A stretch of 32,000 nt of DNA, taken from NCBI RefSeq assembly GCF_000223395.1, contig NC_015931.1, positions 930,001 through 962,000 on the forward strand, written 5' to 3'. Positions 6,063 to 31,782 of the stretch are shown here, piece after piece. Origin of the DNA: Pyrolobus fumarii 1A (GTDB taxonomy: Archaea > Thermoproteota > Thermoprotei_A > Sulfolobales > Pyrodictiaceae). The stretch's first letter is position 1. Every line of letters begins with the position of its first letter. The position numbers were made by a program, and so were the translations under genes. Under the pieces are notes generated by a model. That model was not told the DNA's origin and made no database searches. It was given only the letters and a program-made list of their open reading frames with translations.

Positions 6063-7109
6063 GTGGCGCTTCGCATAGCGTTCAAGAGGACTAGGCCGAT
6101 ACCAGAGTGGAAGAAGAAGGAGGTTGAAGAACTAACCAGGCTGATAAAGAGCTACAAGGTTATCGCGATCGCGGACCTGACGGGTATACCAGCGGCGCAG
6201 TTGCACCGTATACGTAAGAAGCTACGCGAGAAGTATGGCGAGGACAAGATAAAGCTGCGTGTTGCTAAGAACAAGTTGTTCAAGCTCGCTCTCGAAAGGG
6301 CGGGTATAGATGCCAGCAAGTTTGAGCCTTATCTGACTGGCAACAACATATTCATCTTCGCTAACATAAACCCGTTCGAACTCGCAATGATACTAGACAA
6401 GGAGAGGGCAAGGGCGCCAGCAAAGCCGGGTATGAAGGCGCCCACTGAGATAGTCGTGCCAGCTGGCAACACGGGTCTCCAGCCAGGTCCAATCATGAGC
6501 GTGTTTAGCAAGCTCCGTATCCCGATACGTGTGCAGGAAGGCACCATCTGGATTGCAAAGGATACTGTTGTAGCCAAGCCAGGTGACGTGATAAGCGAGG
6601 AGCTCGCGTCGCTCCTCCAGAAGCTTGGCATAGAGCCTGTAGAGATATACCTAAAGCTCAAGATGGCCTATGAGGATGGTGTGGTTATCCCAGCAGAGCA
6701 CCTCTACATCAACATTGACGAGTATAGACAGCGCGTCGAGGAGGCTGTAAGACATGCGCTGTGGGTGGGTGTAGAGATAGCATACCCAGAGCCCGAGGTG
6801 ATGAAGCTAGCGATACCGGTTGCAGTAAGGCGCGCATTCGCTGTGGCAGCCGAAGCTGGTTACGTGACACCAGAGACGGCAGAGTTCGTACTAAGGACGG
6901 CAGTTGCGAAGGCACTAGCAGTCGTCGCCGCCCTAGGCGACAAGGCAAAGGAGCTAGGCATCGAGGTGCAAGTGGCTGCTCCGGCTGCGGCTGCGCCAGC
7001 TGCTACCGAGGAGAAGGAGGAAGAGAAGAAGGAAGAGGAGGAAAAGAAGGAAGAGGGCGTCAGCGAGGAGGAGCTCGCCGGCGGTCTCGAGAGCCTATTC
7101 GGCTTCTAA
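6063..7109 (+). CDS. rplP0: 50S ribosomal protein P0 (L10 family, stalk)
   Basis: L10/P0 N-terminal domain, then an Ala-rich hinge, a Glu/Lys-rich tract and the stalk tail EEELAGGLESLFGF. Confidence 0.92.
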   Translation: MALRIAFKRTRPIPEWKKKEVEELTRLIKSYKVIAIADLTGIPAAQLHRIRKKLREKYGEDKIKLRVAKNKLFKLALERAGIDASKFEPYLTGNNIFIFANINPFELAMILDKERARAPAKPGMKAPTEIVVPAGNTGLQPGPIMSVFSKLRIPIRVQEGTIWIAKDTVVAKPGDVISEELASLLQKLGIEPVEIYLKLKMAYEDGVVIPAEHLYINIDEYRQRVEEAVRHALWVGVEIAYPEPEVMKLAIPVAVRRAFAVAAEAGYVTPETAEFVLRTAVAKALAVVAALGDKAKELGIEVQVAAPAAAAPAATEEKEEEKKEEEEKKEEGVSEEELAGGLESLFGF

Positions 7110-15241: not shown

Positions 15242-16175
15242 CCCAGTACCTCTTTCTCAGCTCCTCCAGGAACTCTTCAAACTCGTCTGGAGGCAGGTTA
15301 AGCGCTGCAAGTATGCACGTGGTGACCGCGTCGTCCTTTTCTCCAACAAGCCCCATAGTAGCCTCTAGAGGATAGCCAAGCAGCCCTGCTAGCTTCTGGA
15401 TCCTCTTACGTTCAAGCCTTTGCAGCTCCCGGGCTATCGCCCTCCCGACACTCCGTGCAGCTGCAGAGGAGAACACTGCTATAGTAACGCTCCACAGTAC
15501 TATGCCTATAGCCATGAGGACCATTGTCAGGGCTTTCCCGGCGGTGGTCTTAGGCACAATATCGCCGTATCCCACGGTCGTTATGGTGACTATCGTGAAC
15601 CAGAGGGCGTCGAAATAGGAGTGTACACTGTGTCCCGCTTCAACGGCATAATATGCGAGTGAACCAGTGGTAATCGTCATAGCGAATAGCGCGAATATTG
15701 GTGAGAGTGCGAGCCCTCTTATGAAGCCGCGTAGCAGCCTGGCAAGGTCGCTCCCATAAGCCAGCATTATAGCGACCCTGGCTATTCTAGCGGCCCTCAC
15801 AATGCTCGATGCGAGCGGGTTTGTGTCAACGGCAACAAGAGGGATCATGCCTGGTATCTCCCACGCGGTCATCACGATATAGCTCATAGGGTATGGGGAG
15901 AGCGCAACACGATACGCATATGCTAGTAGGGCAGCCAAGCTCATGTAGAAGTCGATGGTGTAAAGCGTGGGGCTTGGGGGCGCCAAGGCAGCCACTATAG
16001 CGAAAAAGCCAAGGTAAACCTCGAGTATGTCAAATACGTACCTTGCCAGTGGCTTGTGAGGGCCAGTGGCGAGTGCAGCCAGCGCCTCCCCTCTGGCGGC
16101 CACAAGCGACCCCGGTATCACCAGGCCAGTAACTGCCCCCTCACCAAGCCTCCTACCATGCGAGTGGTGCCGCAC
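15219..16175 (-). CDS. Voltage-gated-type (6TM) potassium channel, KvAP-like
   Basis: Selectivity filter TITTVGYGD and an S4-like IVRAARIARVAIML with Arg at every third position. The C-terminal PDEFEEFLEELRK resembles the KvAP tail. Convergent 23-nt overlap with gcvT. Confidence 0.85.
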   Translation of the reverse strand: MRHHSHGRRLGEGAVTGLVIPGSLVAARGEALAALATGPHKPLARYVFDILEVYLGFFAIVAALAPPSPTLYTIDFYMSLAALLAYAYRVALSPYPMSYIVMTAWEIPGMIPLVAVDTNPLASSIVRAARIARVAIMLAYGSDLARLLRGFIRGLALSPIFALFAMTITTGSLAYYAVEAGHSVHSYFDALWFTIVTITTVGYGDIVPKTTAGKALTMVLMAIGIVLWSVTIAVFSSAAARSVGRAIARELQRLERKRIQKLAGLLGYPLEATMGLVGEKDDAVTTCILAALNLPPDEFEEFLEELRKRYWAIHGHQA

Positions 16176-20339: not shown

Positions 20340-20374
20340 TCCAACTCACCAGGCCCCCACGACCCCCCGGGTAC

Positions 20375-20380
20375 TTATAA
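20375..20380 (-). promoter_or_regulatory. TATA box (TTATAA) for speH
   Basis: Palindromic TTATAA flanked by direct GGGTAC repeats, 35 nt upstream of ATG 20339 on the minus strand. Confidence 0.5.
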
Positions 20381-20637
20381 GGGGTACCCCCCTCCATGAG
20401 CATCGTGAGTAGCGCGTAGTGTGTTGTTGCGGGCCCTACCGCCCCTGACTCCCTCATCATTGGCGGAAGCCTCGGAGCCAACGCTCTCGCCACCGGGCCC
20501 GCCACTGTGAATCATTGTCGCGTGGTCTCTGGTATACCCTCAACCTCTTCGAAAAATGTTCGGGACCACTTTAACACATTAAAGTCAAATTAATGTTAAC
20601 ACGTGTATTGCTGCAGTGTGCGTTAACTACTGTCACA

Positions 20638-20685: not shown

Positions 20686-21849
20686 ATGAGATTGAGGAAA
20701 CGCGATATCATAGTCGTCCTAGCTGCTCTGGTTATGGGGGTATACGCGGCATCCGCTGCAACACTCTGGGCTCCAGTTGAGGAGATGGGAAGCACATGGC
20801 TAGGCGAGATGAGGTTCGCTGATACGCTTCACGCAACCACCAAGGGCATGAAGTACTGGTATGAGCGTGGCATAGGGAAATACACAGGGATACCATACGA
20901 GCAAATGTTCTGCTCAAAATGCCACGCTACGTGCGAGTCTTGCCATGGCGTCCGAGACAGTAACGGTAACGTAGTAGACTTCAGCGTGAAGATGGCGAGT
21001 AACCCAGATACGTGCTTTGCCTGCCATGGCAGACAGAAGAAGGCATACCTGCTAGGCAAGAGTAACCCAGAGCTAGCAGACGTCCATATGTTGGGTCTCG
21101 GAGTATCGTGCACCTTCTGCCACTCTAGTGTAGAAGTGCATGGTATGCACGGTGACTTCCAGTACATGTTCGACAAGGGTGGCGTGTTCGACGTGAGCTG
21201 TGAAAAGTGCCACATATACGGCTATGCGCCGAGACCATACAGATTCATAGAGGAGCATCGCGTGCATCTCGATGATATAGCCTGTTCTGCTTGCCACTCT
21301 CCAACAGTAGTGACATGTTACAACTGTCACCTTTCATACTCGTACGAGAAATACGTAGAGACTGGGGTGCCCGTCAAGAAGGCTATACCGATCATTGGTT
21401 GGCTGCCGCTGGTACGCGACCAGAGGACGGGCAAGATAGTCCCGGGTAACTTCATGGTTGTAGTCTGGACCCACAACGGCACCGAGGCGGTGCGTGTCGA
21501 CATAGCGCAGTTCTTCCCGCACATCGTGGACGAGAGGGGTCGTACCTGCAACGACTGTCATGGTATAGAGGCTGCTAAGCAGCTGCTCGAGAGTGGCGAG
21601 CTACGCCTAGTATGGGTTGAGAATGGGCAAGTGAAGCACATGAACGGCGTCATACCGATAGTCGAGGGCACCAAGCTGGTATTCCAGACATTCGTGTGGG
21701 ACGAGGCCAGCAACAGCTTCAAGCCGTTCAAGGAGGTGGTTGTGACGGTCGGCCCAGACACTCTCATTGAAGCCACCAGCGGCCTCACCATGGAAGACCT
21801 TGAGAAAATGGCAAAATCCCCCGAGGAACTCCAGAGTGGTACAAGCTGA
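20686..21849 (+). CDS. Octahaem c-type cytochrome, N-terminally anchored or secreted
   Basis: Eight CXXCH motifs: CSKCH (aa 76-80), CESCH (83-87), CFACH (110-114), CTFCH (142-146), CEKCH (172-176), CSACH (200-204), CYNCH (211-215) and CNDCH (288-292). N-terminal hydrophobic segment IIVVLAALVMGVYAASAA. Confidence 0.85.
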   Translation: MRLRKRDIIVVLAALVMGVYAASAATLWAPVEEMGSTWLGEMRFADTLHATTKGMKYWYERGIGKYTGIPYEQMFCSKCHATCESCHGVRDSNGNVVDFSVKMASNPDTCFACHGRQKKAYLLGKSNPELADVHMLGLGVSCTFCHSSVEVHGMHGDFQYMFDKGGVFDVSCEKCHIYGYAPRPYRFIEEHRVHLDDIACSACHSPTVVTCYNCHLSYSYEKYVETGVPVKKAIPIIGWLPLVRDQRTGKIVPGNFMVVVWTHNGTEAVRVDIAQFFPHIVDERGRTCNDCHGIEAAKQLLESGELRLVWVENGQVKHMNGVIPIVEGTKLVFQTFVWDEASNSFKPFKEVVVTVGPDTLIEATSGLTMEDLEKMAKSPEELQSGTS

Positions 21850-24079: not shown

Positions 24080-24988
24080 TCAACCGCTGTCAGTTCTAGG
24101 GACCCCGTCTACCGAGGAGACTTTCCCACGAGCAAAGCTACGTAGGACAGCCTCATATACCATCAATGGGTCGAGTATATTCTTACACCCGAACCTAGAG
24201 AGATCCGCCCCGTCAGTGCAGATGATAGCCTCAGAATCCTCGACCCTAACCGTAAACCTAGCGGAGTCCTTAACAGCCTCGTACACCTCGTCAAGAATCT
24301 CAGGGCTACAAGCGAAACACGCACGTGTAATGTCAGAGTCGCTAGAGGTACTGTACACCACCTTACCATCCACAAGAACTACTATACTGCGTGTTAGGTC
24401 AGCAGGAACCTGGAGGCTAACGTGCGTCGTTACAACCACTGGATGACCCCTCGCAAGCCACTCGAACATTCGCAGGACAACGCTAATACTATTGACGTCT
24501 AGGCCCGAGAAAGGCTCATCAAAAACATATGCCTCGCATTCCCTCCCCATGCCAGCAGCGAGCAGCAACCTCTTCCTCATGCCTGTGGAATAGCTACGAA
24601 TGGGCCTATCCCAGAAGCTGGCAATATCGAGCAACTCCGCAACCTCGACCATACGCTCCCATGAGGATCCGGAGGCGCTTATAACAAACCTCAAGAACTC
24701 CCTACCCGAGAGCCACCATGGTAAACCAACATCCTCGAAGACGAAACAAACCCGTCTGCACACGGTATCCCTCGACCGCCAGGGATCCAGGCCAAACACA
24801 GAGACACTGCCACGAGAAGGCCTCAGTATCCCAGCAAACAAGCGCAATAATGTAGACTTGCCACTACCATTAGGACCAAGTAGAAAGTGAAGACCTGACC
24901 CCTCGAAACTCACGTTGACGTCGACTAGTGCCAATGTAGAACCGAAAACCTTCCACACACTCCTAGCAGCAAACAAACATAGACCCAC
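24080..24988 (-). CDS. ABC transporter ATP-binding protein (ABC-2/CcmA-like) with an ~80-aa C-terminal extension
   Basis: Walker A GPNGSGKST, signature YSTGMRKRL, Walker B YVFDEPFSGLD and H-loop TTH. Confidence 0.88.
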   Translation of the reverse strand: MGLCLFAARSVWKVFGSTLALVDVNVSFEGSGLHFLLGPNGSGKSTLLRLFAGILRPSRGSVSVFGLDPWRSRDTVCRRVCFVFEDVGLPWWLSGREFLRFVISASGSSWERMVEVAELLDIASFWDRPIRSYSTGMRKRLLLAAGMGRECEAYVFDEPFSGLDVNSISVVLRMFEWLARGHPVVVTTHVSLQVPADLTRSIVVLVDGKVVYSTSSDSDITRACFACSPEILDEVYEAVKDSARFTVRVEDSEAIICTDGADLSRFGCKNILDPLMVYEAVLRSFARGKVSSVDGVPRTDSG

Positions 24989-25100
24989 CCTTACGTCATA
25001 AGTATCCTCGACGGAGGTGTATGTTATTAATTTTCCTGGCAGAAAGTTTCCAACAAGCTATAACAATCATAAAAGTAGTGCATCCATACTGGGATAAACA
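24989..25100. promoter_or_regulatory. Divergent AT-rich promoter region
   Basis: ATAAAA at 25069-25074 lies 27 nt before ATG 25101, a leaderless-type spacing. An AAATTAATAA-like tract on the minus strand at about 25021-25035 faces the ABC ATPase start at 24988. Confidence 0.45.
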
Positions 25101-25220
25101 ATGTATACAAGGCGTAAGATCGTACTACTGCTGCTATCCTCGCTAATGTTAATAGTGATAACAGCTATTAGCGTGTATGCAGGGAGCGCATTCTGCTCTA
25201 GCACCGGAAAACACTATTGA
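25101..25220 (+). other. Signal/anchor-peptide mini-ORF (39 codons), out of frame with the downstream body
   Basis: Hand translation: MYTRRKIVLLLLSSLMLIVITAISVYAGSAFCSSTGKHY-stop, with a basic n-region plus h-region. The body ORF 25177-25518 is in the +1 frame. Confidence 0.5.
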
Positions 25221-25518
25221 GGTAAACGCATATGCACTGTACAACAATGGCTATGGAAGGGTAGACGCCTCTGCAAAGGCATACGACAGTACAGACGAAG
25301 TAATGGTAATGATATACGCCCGGTTTGACGACACACCCGTCTATTGTGCAATAGATTTTGGCCAGGGCTATGCTTACGCCTATATCGACTCTAAAGAGGC
25401 TGGGATTGAGAACGTCAAGTATACGTATGCTGAGGCTGAAGGAGAGAATTACAATACAGGTGAAACTGTGTTTGTATCGGCCTTTGCGTCACAAAGTAGC
25501 GGATGGTGTGGCTGCTAA
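25177..25518 (+). CDS. Small acidic Tyr-rich protein ending in CGC; probably the body of a frameshifted exported protein
   Basis: The 113-aa track ORF has no signal peptide of its own, and its frame is open from 25162. No family recognised. Confidence 0.5.
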   Translation: MQGAHSALAPENTIEVNAYALYNNGYGRVDASAKAYDSTDEVMVMIYARFDDTPVYCAIDFGQGYAYAYIDSKEAGIENVKYTYAEAEGENYNTGETVFVSAFASQSSGWCGC

Positions 25519-25567
25519 CATGACAAGACGATCAACATGATAAACAAGTGTAGCTAGGTGATACGTC

Positions 25568-25666
25568 ATGATGCATGGATCACAATTTTCTAAAACACTG
25601 AGTCTCCTGTTTTTTATCCTCCTTTCTCTCTCTATTCTTGCCATTACATCATGTTGCAACGCTTAA
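25568..25666 (+). other. Second signal-peptide mini-ORF (32 codons), out of frame with the downstream body
   Basis: An AGGTGA SD (25556-25561) lies 6 nt before ATG 25568. Translation: MMHGSQFSKTLSLLFFILLSLSILAITSCCNA-stop. The body ORF is in the +1 frame. Confidence 0.5.
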
Positions 25667-26750
25667 TACCCTTATCGCAGCAGAAGGCTTGCCTCCTAAC
25701 GACTTTAGCGACCCTGGTAACCCTATTGTACTTGTTTACAAGGTTTGCAGCTTGAGTAATAAGACGATAATATTCTTCAACACTACATCGGGCGGGAAAC
25801 AGCCTATAGGAAGCTGTGTCACGCTCAACATAACATTGTTTAGAGTTAATGATAGTAGCTTCGTCGTGAGGTATACGTTCAAAGCCACGAATTTCAAACT
25901 TGTAAAAGAGTATGTGCTGGTAAAACCGTACTACATGTTGTTTAACTCTAGTGGTGATTTCGCTGGTGCATTCCCCTTCATGTTGTTCGACGTCAATATC
26001 GTGAACGATACTATCGTTAAGATATATAGTAATCAAATTTTCTATAGTGTAAGTTTTAGATGTTCTAGGGACGAGTGTAGCGAGCCCCTCAAGCTCTTGC
26101 AAGATGTTATTAGGGGATGCAGTAAGCGTGGTGTAACGCGTCTAAACAAGACGGTATCGATTATAGTCTCCAAGGAAGAGGTATACGTAAAGCTTAGATG
26201 GGCTCCTCTTATGCTCATGTATGTTCTCTCCAAGCGTCCGGCAGACAAACCTATAATCGTGGATGGTGTCCGCCTGGGTCCTGAAAGGCTTATAGTATTC
26301 GATGCGGAGAGTGCCTCTGGGCTTAGCGCTAGTATCGTGAAAGCTGCGATGGAGAAAAGGGGTCTAAAGGTACTACATTGCGAGGTAACTAAAAATGGAA
26401 AACTTGTCGGAGTTGTCGTGCTTACGCCGGATTGTCGTATATCCGTGATTATCGTTTATGGGAGGCATGTTGGATACTATGACTTGTTAACGCGTGTACT
26501 AGTGTATGGCGTGTATGAGGGCGGGCCGTGTGCGAATGTACTGTGTGTGTTTCCGCTTGACACCCAGTTCTACTTTGATCGTTTCGAGATGAGGGGTGTC
26601 GAGGTTAGGTTAGTGTATACAAATCTCCCGTTGAGTAGCGTGAATTATGTTGTTGGTACGGATAGACCGTACAGGCTGTACACGCTTGCGCTTGCTGCAT
26701 TGTGGGTCATCATCTCATCGATACTTATGCACTTGTTTAGAAGGTGGTGA
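25638..26750 (+). CDS. Sequon-rich extracellular protein with a C-terminal TM anchor (hypothetical)
   Basis: 370-aa track ORF (TTG start as listed, frame open from 25602). Sequons NKT, NTT, NIT, NDS, NSS, NDT and NKT. C-terminal LYTLALAALWVIISSILMHLF followed by RRW. Confidence 0.6.
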   Translation: MPLHHVATLNTLIAAEGLPPNDFSDPGNPIVLVYKVCSLSNKTIIFFNTTSGGKQPIGSCVTLNITLFRVNDSSFVVRYTFKATNFKLVKEYVLVKPYYMLFNSSGDFAGAFPFMLFDVNIVNDTIVKIYSNQIFYSVSFRCSRDECSEPLKLLQDVIRGCSKRGVTRLNKTVSIIVSKEEVYVKLRWAPLMLMYVLSKRPADKPIIVDGVRLGPERLIVFDAESASGLSASIVKAAMEKRGLKVLHCEVTKNGKLVGVVVLTPDCRISVIIVYGRHVGYYDLLTRVLVYGVYEGGPCANVLCVFPLDTQFYFDRFEMRGVEVRLVYTNLPLSSVNYVVGTDRPYRLYTLALAALWVIISSILMHLFRRW

Positions 26751-27133
26751 TCATGACGGGTAGGTACGCGGGTTTCCTGCTACCGGTCGTAGTATGGGTT
26801 GTTGTGATGCTCGCCTTCAGCCTAATGGTCTACACTGTGGACTACCCTACGGGTGGCTACTTTTCCTATACGCCGTGGAGCGCTGGCATACCATCCGCGT
26901 ACTTAGGGAGGATCTATATTTGCTCATGGGGAGGGAATGCGAGTATCAGCATTAGACTCTCGGGTATAAAGATGGCTAAGTTTTTGGTTCTGGCTGAGGC
27001 TATCGGAAGCGGCTCTAATGTCACGGTGTCTAGACTCGTTGTTGGAGATTCTCGTAGCCTGGCGTTCACGTATGAGCTTAGGAGCCCAGACCTCTACAGG
27101 TTTACGATCCTAGTGGCGTTTTGTGCCAAGTGA
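26744..27133 (+). CDS. Hypothetical membrane-anchored protein (129 aa)
   Basis: N-terminal TM FLLPVVVWVVVMLAFSLMVY followed by a beta-like ectodomain. It overlaps both neighbours (7 nt and 11 nt), consistent with an operon. Confidence 0.55.
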   Translation: MVIMTGRYAGFLLPVVVWVVVMLAFSLMVYTVDYPTGGYFSYTPWSAGIPSAYLGRIYICSWGGNASISIRLSGIKMAKFLVLAEAIGSGSNVTVSRLVVGDSRSLAFTYELRSPDLYRFTILVAFCAK

Positions 27134-28088
27134 GGGAGCGGCACAAATCCTTGTAGAGTTTAACGCTTGGGGGCCTAGACGAGAACTGGCAGCGAACATG
27201 GTGGTATCGGCGCTCTTCTTCGCAGGCCTATGGGCTGCAGCGACAAGCCTGATATACGCGTGGGTCAGTCGTACCAGCAGAGAGCTATTGTTGTTCTTTG
27301 CGAGGTTTCCGGCGACGAGCCTGCTAGGCAGCATCGGCGCGATAGCGATCCTGAGTGATGTGTGGCCACCAAAGGTGTTGATAGACTATTCTCCCAGGGT
27401 TGTTGCTATGTACGCTTCTATCACGAGCTACGAGTCTTTCACACTCTATCTTCTACTCTTCCTGTCGGGTCTCTACGCGGTACTCTTCTACGCGTACGCC
27501 ATCGAGCGCAAGCTCTTCGACGCGTTAGAGCTGGCGTCGTTCAGGAGGAGTGAAGTGGTGAGGACACACCTAGTCTCCTGGGTACTGTTATACTGGTTGC
27601 TGGTCATCTTCACTGTCCTAACGCTAAGCTACTCCTACGCCGCGATACTCTACCAGCTTAGACCCATAGAAGCGCTTAGTATCGTAATGCCAGTTGTGCT
27701 GCTAGAGTTGACGTTCTATCTTCTTGTAGGATATCTGGTCGCTACGCTGCTCTGCATGGTGTTTGGCAGAGTGAATGTCGCGATTCTAGCTCATTTGCTC
27801 GCCTCGTTCGGGATAGTTGAGCTTGTCCGCAACCACCCCCGCATATTTGAGGTGTACTGGAGCCTAGCAGATCTTGACATCCCGGTGTTTGGCATACCCC
27901 TCTTCGACAAGAGTGTAGAGGAGGTGACGGTGGGCGAGGTGCTTAGCAAGATGCAGGAGAGGCTAAACATCATTATGAGCAGCATGCTGGTCGAACGGTT
28001 GATACCGAAGACGGTGATGGTATCTGCTACGCTGCTAATACTCGTAGCCATACTATATGTGGTGGCTATGAGGAGAGAGTTTCGGTAG
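27123..28088 (+). CDS. Polytopic membrane protein, likely the ABC-2-type permease partner
   Basis: 321 aa with about 6 hydrophobic helices and a last TM near the C-terminus (VMVSATLLILVAILYVVAM). The permease assignment comes from context with the divergent ABC ATPase. Confidence 0.5.
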   Translation: MPSEGAAQILVEFNAWGPRRELAANMVVSALFFAGLWAAATSLIYAWVSRTSRELLLFFARFPATSLLGSIGAIAILSDVWPPKVLIDYSPRVVAMYASITSYESFTLYLLLFLSGLYAVLFYAYAIERKLFDALELASFRRSEVVRTHLVSWVLLYWLLVIFTVLTLSYSYAAILYQLRPIEALSIVMPVVLLELTFYLLVGYLVATLLCMVFGRVNVAILAHLLASFGIVELVRNHPRIFEVYWSLADLDIPVFGIPLFDKSVEEVTVGEVLSKMQERLNIIMSSMLVERLIPKTVMVSATLLILVAILYVVAMRREFR

Positions 28089-28133: not shown

Positions 28134-29096
28134 CTACGCGTGCCTCGAGAGGTAGTCGAGTATTGTTTTTGCTATGGCTCTGGCTAGTGGTGGTGGCACG
28201 GCCTCGCCAACCTGGTTGTATTGCTCATCGCGGCCGCCGAGGAACACATGGTTATCTGGGAAGCCCATTAGCCTAGCTTGTTCGCGGACCGTTAGGAACC
28301 TATCCTCGTAGGGATGGATGAAGCGGCTCGAGCCAAGGACGGTTGGGGCGGGTTTCCGTGGGTCGAGGCGGATAAGGTTAGGTAGTCTCCTACCCTCAGC
28401 ACCCTCGTATAGTATCATCGCTTGACCCCAACGTAGCCTTGCTATCCTCTTAGCCTTCTTGGGGCTAGTTGAAGGTGGCTCGTGATTCGGGGGCCATGGA
28501 GCACCAGGTTCTGGTAATCCCTTCAGAGCGTCACGTACAGTGAGTAGTCTCCTAGAGGGCCTTGGACGCAGGGGTATGTTGGATATGAATACTCTCCTCC
28601 TGTGGCTCGGCGTCCCGTACCTCTCGGCCTCGAGGATATTGAAGTATATGCGTTCGTAGCCTGCTCTCGCGAATACCCTTCTCAGCTCGTCGCGTAACTC
28701 GCCCTCAAGTATACCCGGCACATTCTCCATCACGAACACCTTTGGTCTAAGCTCTCCGACTATGCGGGCATAGTGGAGTACAAGCTGGCCTATCGGATCC
28801 CTGTACAGTCTATCAAGCGGGTCTTTCATCCTACGTGGGTTTGCGCCAGTGAACGGCTCGCAAGGCGGACTACCTATCACCACATCGGGTTGGCCAACGA
28901 GCCTCTCGATCAGCCTGCCGGTAACCTCCCTCACATCTATATGCAGGGCTATCGCTTCTGGAAAGTTCGCCTTAAAGCTGCGTATCGCGGCCGCGTCGTT
29001 ATCTACGCCCAAGAGGACTTGGAAGCCTGCGTCCCGGAATCCTCTCGAGAATCCACCGGCACCGCTAAACAAGTCTATAATTGTGAAGCGTGTCAA
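28134..29096 (-). CDS. DNA (cytosine-5)-methyltransferase (Dcm family)
   Basis: Motif I IDLFSGAGGFSRGF, IV GSPPCEPFT, VI FVMENVPG, VIII SHRRRVFI, IX REQARLMGFPDNHVF and X YNQVGEAVPPPLARAI. Confidence 0.88.
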   Translation of the reverse strand: MTRFTIIDLFSGAGGFSRGFRDAGFQVLLGVDNDAAAIRSFKANFPEAIALHIDVREVTGRLIERLVGQPDVVIGSPPCEPFTGANPRRMKDPLDRLYRDPIGQLVLHYARIVGELRPKVFVMENVPGILEGELRDELRRVFARAGYERIYFNILEAERYGTPSHRRRVFISNIPLRPRPSRRLLTVRDALKGLPEPGAPWPPNHEPPSTSPKKAKRIARLRWGQAMILYEGAEGRRLPNLIRLDPRKPAPTVLGSSRFIHPYEDRFLTVREQARLMGFPDNHVFLGGRDEQYNQVGEAVPPPLARAIAKTILDYLSRHA

Positions 29097-30975: not shown

Positions 30976-31782
30976 TTGCGGGCGCACAGGAGCCTCATTG
31001 TGTTGCTACCTGTACTAGCTCTTGCTTCTGCAATCGTCTATACAGTCTATCACTCGTCTAGCGCACCCATGATGCACTCAACAGATAATGCGATGCGAGT
31101 CTATTCTAGAAGCTTATGTGCATACCGTATGCTCTTTTATGATCCACTCGCGCTCGAATATCCAAATCAGACGCTCCTCCGCCAAATAGAGTACATCGTG
31201 AACGAATCGGGAGGCTGCCTCGACGCCTATATCGGAGAAGAAGCGGGTCTAGAACCACTCCTCCACCTCGATAAATATGATATCATCGTTATCCGTGCGC
31301 ATGGCGGGATCTGGGATGGAAGAGGCTTCTATTTCGCGACTGGTCTCTCACCACAGGGCCCTTACGACATCCCAGTATTACTCGTCCAGAAGCTAGCTAA
31401 AAATGGTGTGCTTGAGGCGGGCTCACCAGCTGTACTCTCCGAGGGAGCTGTCATATCATCCTCAGAGTATATCATAGTCGGGGCTCTCTTCTTTAAGCAT
31501 GTCGCGAGGCTCAAGAAGGGCGCGGTAGTCGTAGTAGCATCTTGTGATAGCCTCAATGATCCGAGATTCGTGGAAGCGGTCCTCACGGCTGGGGCCGTGG
31601 CATATATAGGATGGATGGGTAAAACGACACCATCTGCAATAGACGATATGCTTCCAAGCCTTATCAAGCTAATCGTAGAGCACCTAGATAACCCATGCGA
31701 AGCTTTGACTAATCTGAAGATTATTGGGGTGAAGTTAGTGGCGCCAACGGGTGCCGTTCTCTCCGGGGTATGCAAAGAGTAA
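30976..31782 (+). CDS. Secreted or anchored protein with a clan-CD (gingipain/C25-like) cysteine peptidase pattern (hypothetical)
   Basis: N-terminal LIVLLPVLALASAIVYTVY. A hydrophobic block plus His-Gly (YDIIVIRAHGG, His109), then a hydrophobic block plus Ser-Cys (GAVVVVASCDS, Cys190) followed by AGAVAYIGW. The track start is TTG. Confidence 0.45.
   Translation: MRAHRSLIVLLPVLALASAIVYTVYHSSSAPMMHSTDNAMRVYSRSLCAYRMLFYDPLALEYPNQTLLRQIEYIVNESGGCLDAYIGEEAGLEPLLHLDKYDIIVIRAHGGIWDGRGFYFATGLSPQGPYDIPVLLVQKLAKNGVLEAGSPAVLSEGAVISSSEYIIVGALFFKHVARLKKGAVVVVASCDSLNDPRFVEAVLTAGAVAYIGWMGKTTPSAIDDMLPSLIKLIVEHLDNPCEALTNLKIIGVKLVAPTGAVLSGVCKE

Follow-up and report, generated by a model that had tools for sequence, protein, structure and literature searches.

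Two adjacent split genes for putative exported proteins in Pyrolobus fumarii 1A: probable frameshift alleles and a possibly length-polymorphic poly-T tract

We identified two adjacent genes in Pyrolobus fumarii 1A, referred to here as gene 1 and gene 2, each of which is cut into a short ORF encoding a signal-peptide-like sequence and a longer body in the +1 frame. The window, i.e., the whole stretch of DNA analysed, comprises 32,000 nt (positions 930,001 to 962,000 of NC_015931.1). The two frames of gene 2 overlap across a run of six T (T6) that is only five T long (T5) in one of three read-set assemblies of the strain, and the shorter run restores an uninterrupted ORF. With slightly better than even confidence, we interpret the two interruptions as genuine frameshift alleles, with gene 2 carrying a length-polymorphic poly-T tract that resembles phase variation. 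The two genes open a cassette (25101-28088) that is best explained as encoding four orphan envelope proteins. An initial annotation, made from the sequence alone, had already located both split genes together with the T6, GGG, A4, ATAAAA and AGGTGA motifs, and all of these coordinates were correct on re-check. The features are as follows (window coordinates).

24080..24988, minus strand: DrrA-type/ABC-2 ABC transporter ATPase (Pfam ABC_tran, 9e-20; NCBIfam drrA, 1.2e-33)
25069..25074, plus strand: TATA-like box ATAAAA, 26-27 nt upstream of ATG 25101, read from the sequence
25101..25220, plus strand: gene 1 5' piece, 39-aa ORF in frame 0, ATG 25101 to TGA 25220, product MYTRRKIVLLLLSSLMLIVITAISVYAGSAFCSSTGKHY
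25162..25220, plus strand: gene 1 frame overlap, 59 nt; one base too many within it breaks the gene
25177..25518, plus strand: gene 1 body, 113-aa orphan in the +1 frame, which is open from 25162
25556..25561, plus strand: Shine-Dalgarno (SD)-like AGGTGA with a 6-nt spacer to ATG 25568, read from the sequence
25568..25666, plus strand: gene 2 5' piece, 32-aa ORF, ATG to TAA; product of the T6 allele MMHGSQFSKTLSLLFFILLSLSILAITSCCNA
25602..26750, plus strand: gene 2 body, orphan, in the +1 frame, which is open from 25602 (TGA at 25599-25601)
25610..25615, plus strand: T6 tract, within the signal-peptide-coding region and inside the gene 2 frame overlap
26753..27133, plus strand: gene 3, 126-aa orphan with an N-terminal transmembrane (TM) anchor and 2 sequons
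27123..28088, plus strand: gene 4, 321-aa orphan polytopic membrane protein with ~6 TM segments (hydropathy)

In archaeal promoters, a TATA-box spacing such as that upstream of ATG 25101 is expected for a leaderless crenarchaeal first gene. The spacing implies an mRNA that would start at or beside this ATG. The encoded peptide has an n-region (MYTRRK), a 19-residue hydrophobic core and a cleavage-like site (VYA/G). The gene 1 body has neither a signal peptide nor an SD sequence of its own. Removing one base within the 59-nt overlap fuses the two frames, and the predicted fused product contains ...AGAHSALAPENTIEVNAY... The candidate sites for the extra base are GGG (25182-25184) and A4 (25208-25211).

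Gene 2 has the same layout. The longest ORF of its body comprises 370 aa (25638-26750, from TTG 25638), the frames overlap by 65 nt, and one base removed there joins them. The body contains seven N-X-S/T sequons, nine cysteines and a C-terminal TM anchor with an RRW tail. Its sequon density is 1.89 per 100 aa, nine times the 0.21 of 28 background genes (Poisson P ~2e-5). As predicted from these features, the architecture is that of a type-I anchored N-glycoprotein. A sequon-enriched protein with a C-terminal TM anchor needs an N-terminal export signal if it is to reach the outside. The signal-peptide-like N-terminus, the seven sequons and the anchor together point to a surface-exposed product. 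With five T, gene 2 becomes an uninterrupted 393-aa ORF from the ATG that starts MMHGSQFSKTLSLLFLSSFLSLFLPLHHVATLN; the fused peptide given in the initial annotation was right apart from one typo, which this sequence corrects. A predicted junction or mature N-terminal peptide of the 393-aa protein is, for example, ...LNTLIAAEGLPPNDFSDPGNPIVLVYK.

On the scales used, the hydrophobic core of the frame-0 peptide of gene 2 scores 2.76, compared with 1.67 for the T5-fused peptide. The frame-0 mini-ORF ends in L-A-I-T-S-C-C (25634-25660), which fits the bacterial lipobox [LVI][ASTVI][GAS]C and is lost in the T5-fused frame. Given the stronger frame-0 core and the lipobox-like I-T-S-C end, the original lesion of gene 2 may lie downstream of the T-run. 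The ancestral lesion might then be nearer to 25640-25666, and T5 would be an upstream secondary suppressor. The gene 2 overlap also contains a (TC)4 repeat (25625-25633), in which one added unit (+2) would fuse the frames as well; no length variant of this repeat was found in any assembly.

Public annotations start gene 2 either at TTG 25752 (332 aa) or at TTG 25638 (370 aa). Both codons are without an SD sequence, and ATG 25568 is overlooked in both annotations. The gene caller used the 370-aa TTG start on the T5 contig as well, despite the 393-aa ORF from the ATG.

Across all six reading frames, the window has 266 ORFs of 25-70 aa, and each was scored for the combination of a basic n-region and a hydrophobic core. 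Only six passed a loose signal-peptide filter, and the two mini-ORFs ranked at the top (2.95 for gene 1 and 2.76 for gene 2). Initiation signals were found only at the mini-ORF starts, with none comparable before ATG 25177 or TTG 25638. The initiation signals, the rank by hydrophobicity, the sequon enrichment and the C-terminal anchor lead us to conclude that the two pieces of each gene belong together. The same evidence bears out the proposal of the initial annotation that each is a gene for an exported protein, divided between a signal-peptide ORF and a body in the +1 frame. The window contains 65 homopolymer runs of at least 5 bases, seven of at least 6 and none of at least 7; about 0.03 runs of at least 6 are expected in the 124 nt of combined frame overlap. 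Both lesions lie within the first 4-28% of their own gene, beside the signal peptide. This early position is weakly suggestive, in two genes only, of selection for clean ON/OFF behaviour.

Logan assemblies of three runs (SRR064176, SRR064175 and SRR3923853) were recovered by exact-sequence look-up of the 113-aa product. A fourth run, SRR064726, has contigs elsewhere in the window, none of which carries the cassette genes. Gene 1 matches the reference in all three assemblies and gene 2 in two of the three. In an alignment of positions 25000-25700, the gene 1 overlap is identical in four of four versions (the reference and the three assemblies). At the assembly level, the T-run of gene 2 is T6 in the reference, SRR064175 and SRR3923853, and T5 in SRR064176. 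The T6 contig of the later run, SRR3923853, is the same contig in two samples. The SRR064176 contigs (41.6 kb and 70.1 kb) span window positions 1-32000, and the missing T at 25610-25615 is their sole difference from the reference; all 64 other runs of at least 5 bases agree. The initial annotation had predicted that dropping one T would fuse gene 2, and SRR064176 contains exactly this allele, with an intact 393-aa ORF.

Contig ends give some indication of the quality of these data. SRR064176 passes unbroken through G6 and C6 runs. The contigs of SRR064175 begin or end at C4-C6 runs (window positions 16111, 20358 and 20388; region 20354-20392), which the SRR064176 contigs cross unbroken. Judged from these breaks rather than from run metadata, SRR064175 is probably homopolymer-noisy (454-like) and SRR064176 is not. 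A GA-rich low-complexity stretch at the 3' end of the L10/P0 gene (7039-7082; aggaagagaagaagg...) encodes an acidic/lysine-rich tail, and the contigs of SRR064176 and SRR064726 all break within it, as is typical of de Bruijn assembly at repeats. This stretch, near 7058-7082, is the only place in the window where SRR064176 contigs break.

The finished genome of P. fumarii 1A (DSM 11204, CP002838; 1,843,267 bp) was built from one Illumina library (1,753x) and two 454 libraries, with an Illumina-polished consensus and GenePRIMP curation (PMC3156397). The stated error rate is below 1 in 100,000, and 19 pseudogenes were reported (PMC3156397).

On the preferred reading, genes 1 and 2 would be true exported-protein genes with translation starts at ATG 25101 (leaderless) and ATG 25568 (SD-led). 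The reference would carry one extra base per gene, within or shortly after the signal-peptide-coding part. Ribosomes would then make only the 39-aa and 32-aa hydrophobic peptides, and the bodies would not, or hardly, be made. The frameshifts would be real alleles of the strain rather than assembly errors. For gene 2, T6 would be the OFF state and T5 the ON state, the latter giving a 393-aa precursor of a type-I membrane N-glycoprotein. Replication slippage on the poly-T homopolymer would be the most likely cause of such an ON/OFF polymorphism, comparable to a contingency locus or to phase variation. The strain's DNA would be, or would formerly have been, a mixture of T5 and T6, and de Bruijn assemblies of different runs would have resolved the resulting bubble differently. 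With mixed DNA, neither the 454 nor the Illumina reads would have forced a correction of the T-run.

Several observations underlie this reading. Since the split of gene 1 is the same in all data, a simple assembly indel is very unlikely there. Because T6 is reproduced in two independent assemblies, an assembly indel is also unlikely for the T6 of the reference. Core genes elsewhere in the window are intact (eIF6, prefoldin, FtsY, Spt5, L11, L1, L10/P0, tRNA synthetases and others), and thus the surrounding sequence shows no sign of frameshift noise. The deposited sequence is most likely correct. SRR064176 is otherwise perfect over 32 kb and its sole deviation restores the 393-aa ORF; a generic homopolymer error is therefore a poor explanation of T5. 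The balance tips modestly towards DNA heterogeneity, rather than platform error, as the source of the T5/T6 difference. Gene 1 would be either a fixed pseudogene or an allele with a rare revertant, and is OFF in every data set. Of the four options raised in the initial annotation, slipped-strand variation is favoured for gene 2, assembly error is unlikely, recoding is without support, and paired pseudogenisation is improbable.

Against a polymorphism, T5 is seen in a single de Bruijn assembly (SRR064176), the 454 libraries of the genome project are prone to homopolymer errors, T6 is found in two of three read-set assemblies as well as in the reference, and gene 1 is invariant. As in a contingency locus, gene 2 has a repeat within the ORF at an expression-controlling position (T6), and its product is predicted to be surface-exposed; gene 1 has only GGG and A4. 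The six T are fewer than in the classic hypermutable tracts of bacteria (usually at least 7 mononucleotides), a threshold that is bacterial, and the host of gene 2 grows above 100 C. We consider it unlikely that the T5/T6 difference is an adaptive, reversible switch. The fuller proposal, that the short poly-T tract reversibly switches a surface-anchored N-glycoprotein ON and OFF and that gene 1 is a second switch now locked OFF, is correspondingly speculative.

The strongest alternative, which we regard as possible though improbable, is that both genes are plain fixed pseudogenes, decaying orphans in a low-GC island, and that a homopolymer error of sequencing or assembly produced the T5 of SRR064176. 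In favour of this, the polished reference and two independent assemblies all have T6, gene 1 does not vary, and the genome paper reports 19 pseudogenes as well as the use of 454 libraries (PMC3156397). The GC content of genes 1 and 2 is 44-47% (47% for gene 1 and 45% for gene 2), below that of every one of the 28 background genes (50-59%), and orphan genes of this composition would fit recently acquired, dispensable DNA. Gene 1, which has no intact version in any data set, is consistent with a pseudogene; gene 2 has an intact T5 version in one assembly. This explanation must however accommodate an assembly that is error-free elsewhere over 32 kb, including the 64 other runs, and whose lone discrepancy involves exactly the base that restores the 393-aa ORF. 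It also leaves the early position of the lesions to chance, and random decay would place both within the first 4-28% of their genes with a probability of only ~1-2%.

It is improbable that the reference is wrong at the T-run, i.e., that the true genome has T5, gene 2 is intact, and only gene 1 is frameshifted. T5 does come from the longest and cleanest assembly (the 70-kb contig of SRR064176), and SRR064175, which breaks at C4-C6 runs and looks like noisy 454 data, could over-call T6. However, the reference was polished with 1,753x Illumina data and curated with GenePRIMP (PMC3156397), and the later, independent SRR3923853 contig, seen in two samples, also has T6.

Programmed recoding, in which a +1 shift of the ribosome or slippage of RNA polymerase on T6 and on GGG/A4 would yield full-length proteins, is very improbable. 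A P-site tRNA-Phe on UUU UUU would re-pair perfectly after a +1 slip, and the product would be identical to that of the T5 allele; among the Phe codons of the background genes, TTT (55) is rarer than TTC (170). The archaeal gene fucA1 is interrupted at an A-run and yet expressed, though by a -1 shift (PMC8211752). According to a 2021 review, this -1 programmed frameshifting (PRF) is the sole case of frameshifting demonstrated for a gene of cellular archaea, and +1 PRF in archaea is only apparent, in one haloarchaeal virus (PMC8211752). No programmed +1 shift site was found in gene 1 or gene 2; the absence of an RF2-type site from both genes agrees with the initial annotation, and gene 1 lacks any slippery site. 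At the T-run, the A site holds neither a stop nor a clearly rare codon, and there is no SD-like element at the RF2-type distance. RNA near both overlaps is no more stable than shuffled controls (z -0.7 to +1.0), six T are few for slippage by RNA polymerase, and no orthologs were found that would show the layout to be conserved. Low-level adventitious slippage on T6 is possible, but a programmed event has no support.

It is just as hard to credit a coincidental layout, with mini-ORFs that are non-coding or encode independent small membrane peptides and bodies that are independent cytoplasmic or tail-anchored proteins starting at ATG 25177, TTG 25638 or TTG 25752, since the treatment of the bodies as separate genes in public annotations (113 aa and 332 or 370 aa) and the tendency of CT-rich DNA to yield hydrophobic peptides in two of three frames are outweighed by the rank of the mini-ORFs as the best two of only 6/266 signal-peptide-like small ORFs, by an ATG with start signals that the bodies lack, by sequon enrichment that would be purposeless in the cytoplasm, and by a T5 allele that links the two gene 2 pieces exactly.

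The cassette is transcribed divergently from the ABC transporter ATPase gene (24080..24988), whose match to the NCBIfam drrA subfamily (1.2e-33) is under the curated cut-off. Gene 4 is a possible permease partner for this ATPase, and the ATPase is likely to be the partner of the 6-TM cassette protein. In terms of an ABC-2/DrrAB exporter, the ATPase is thus drrA-like at a score below the cut-off, and the ~6-TM protein of gene 4 is without a Pfam or NCBIfam match. The region 25001-27000 is low in GC (42.5% and 47.4% per kb, compared with ~54% elsewhere), coincides with orphan genes 1 and 2, and is flanked by the ABC ATPase gene and by a C5 DNA methylase gene (28134-29096, minus strand). The cassette resembles an island that is either young or acquired.

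Other genes of uncertain function occur in the neighbourhood. The ORF at 30976-31782 (268 aa, called as 259 aa) is an orphan without a Pfam or PHROG match, and ~270 bp after it, just past the end of the window, lies a gene for a 1,103-aa protein, also without a Pfam match. The sole Pfam match of a 385-aa protein (20692-21849) is a faint one to a multihaem cytochrome c3-type family, and a C6 run is located just upstream, at 20387.

We searched for homologues in 5.8e9 clustered and 1.84e9 representative proteins and in genome and metagenome scans. In word-index protein searches, the gene 2 body, the gene 1 body and gene 4 matched only themselves, and a full HMMER scan of the 1.84e9 representatives found no homologue of the gene 2 body besides itself. 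The fused 393-aa protein had no match in the metagenome scan. The four cassette proteins are without Pfam, NCBIfam or PHROGs matches, and a PDB sequence search gave no match for them, the fused gene 2 protein included. In a genome contig scan, the ABC ATPase matched only bacterial ABC ATPases that are unrelated (21-39% identity), and no archaeal synteny was found. No paralogs of the cassette genes were found within the window, and Rfam had no match in the window. Single-sequence AlphaFold models were unusable (pLDDT 40.7 and 46.9; gene 1 body ~47), and a bacterial promoter/terminator scan is uninformative for an archaeon. As the cassette proteins have no orthologs, the two-frame layout, selection and tract conservation are not comparable across species.

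Homopolymer-driven phase variation is a hallmark of host-adapted bacteria, and to our knowledge no contingency-locus-type phase variation of a surface protein has previously been shown in Archaea. A genuine T5/T6 polymorphism would extend this type of surface-protein variation to Archaea and to the upper temperature limit of life. The selection that acts on the surface of a vent chemolithoautotroph (e.g., viruses, attachment or glycan cost) would then be of interest. In practice, the public annotations (113 aa; 332 or 370 aa) begin at internal codons that are artefacts and leave out the signal peptides. Should the polymorphism prove spurious, both genes would be ordinary pseudogenes within a low-GC island of orphan genes.

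In Neisseria opa, CTCTT repeats lie in the signal-peptide-coding region. The Listeria monocytogenes inlA gene has a 5' poly(A) tract and undergoes phase variation by slipped-strand mispairing (Orsi et al. 2010, PMC2831843). Like such bacterial contingency loci, gene 2 has a short simple repeat in the first few dozen codons of a putative surface-protein gene, and a length change of +/-1 would give either a very short peptide (8 aa in InlA, 32 aa in gene 2) or the full protein. Both tract lengths also occur within the data of one strain. Unlike those loci, gene 2 is found in a hyperthermophilic crenarchaeon, its tract has only 6 T and its product is an orphan, and the variation is known from one assembly-level difference rather than from read counts or switching rates.

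With RF2 (prfB), genes 1 and 2 share the need for a +1 shift, which would carry ribosomes out of a short ORF and into a long body downstream. They differ in that they are archaeal, do not encode release factors, and lack a CUU UGA C-type site, an in-frame stop at the shift site and an SD-like stimulator 3 nt upstream. Archaeal frameshift pseudogenes occur in A/T-rich tracts (van Passel et al. 2007, as cited in PMC8211752), and likewise involve disruption at or near an A/T homopolymer in a well-finished genome. Here, in contrast, an intact allele of gene 2 is detectable in data from the same strain, and the lesions affect two neighbouring genes at matching relative positions.

Among archaea, the closest precedent is fucA1 of Sulfolobus solfataricus, an alpha-L-fucosidase gene interrupted at an A-run and subject to programmed -1 frameshifting (PMC1616953; PMC8211752). 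The interrupted allele is one A off its intact orthologs and is weakly expressed by means of the -1 shift (PMC8211752). Expression of fucA1 requires a -1 shift on A-AAA-AAT with rare codons and a stem-loop, whereas genes 1 and 2 would need a +1 shift and stimulators were not found; fucA1 also has intact orthologs and genes 1 and 2 have none. Nevertheless, all three are crenarchaeal genes in which a short N-terminal and a long C-terminal ORF overlap by ~40-65 nt, and in fucA1, as in gene 2, the intact version differs by one homopolymer base.
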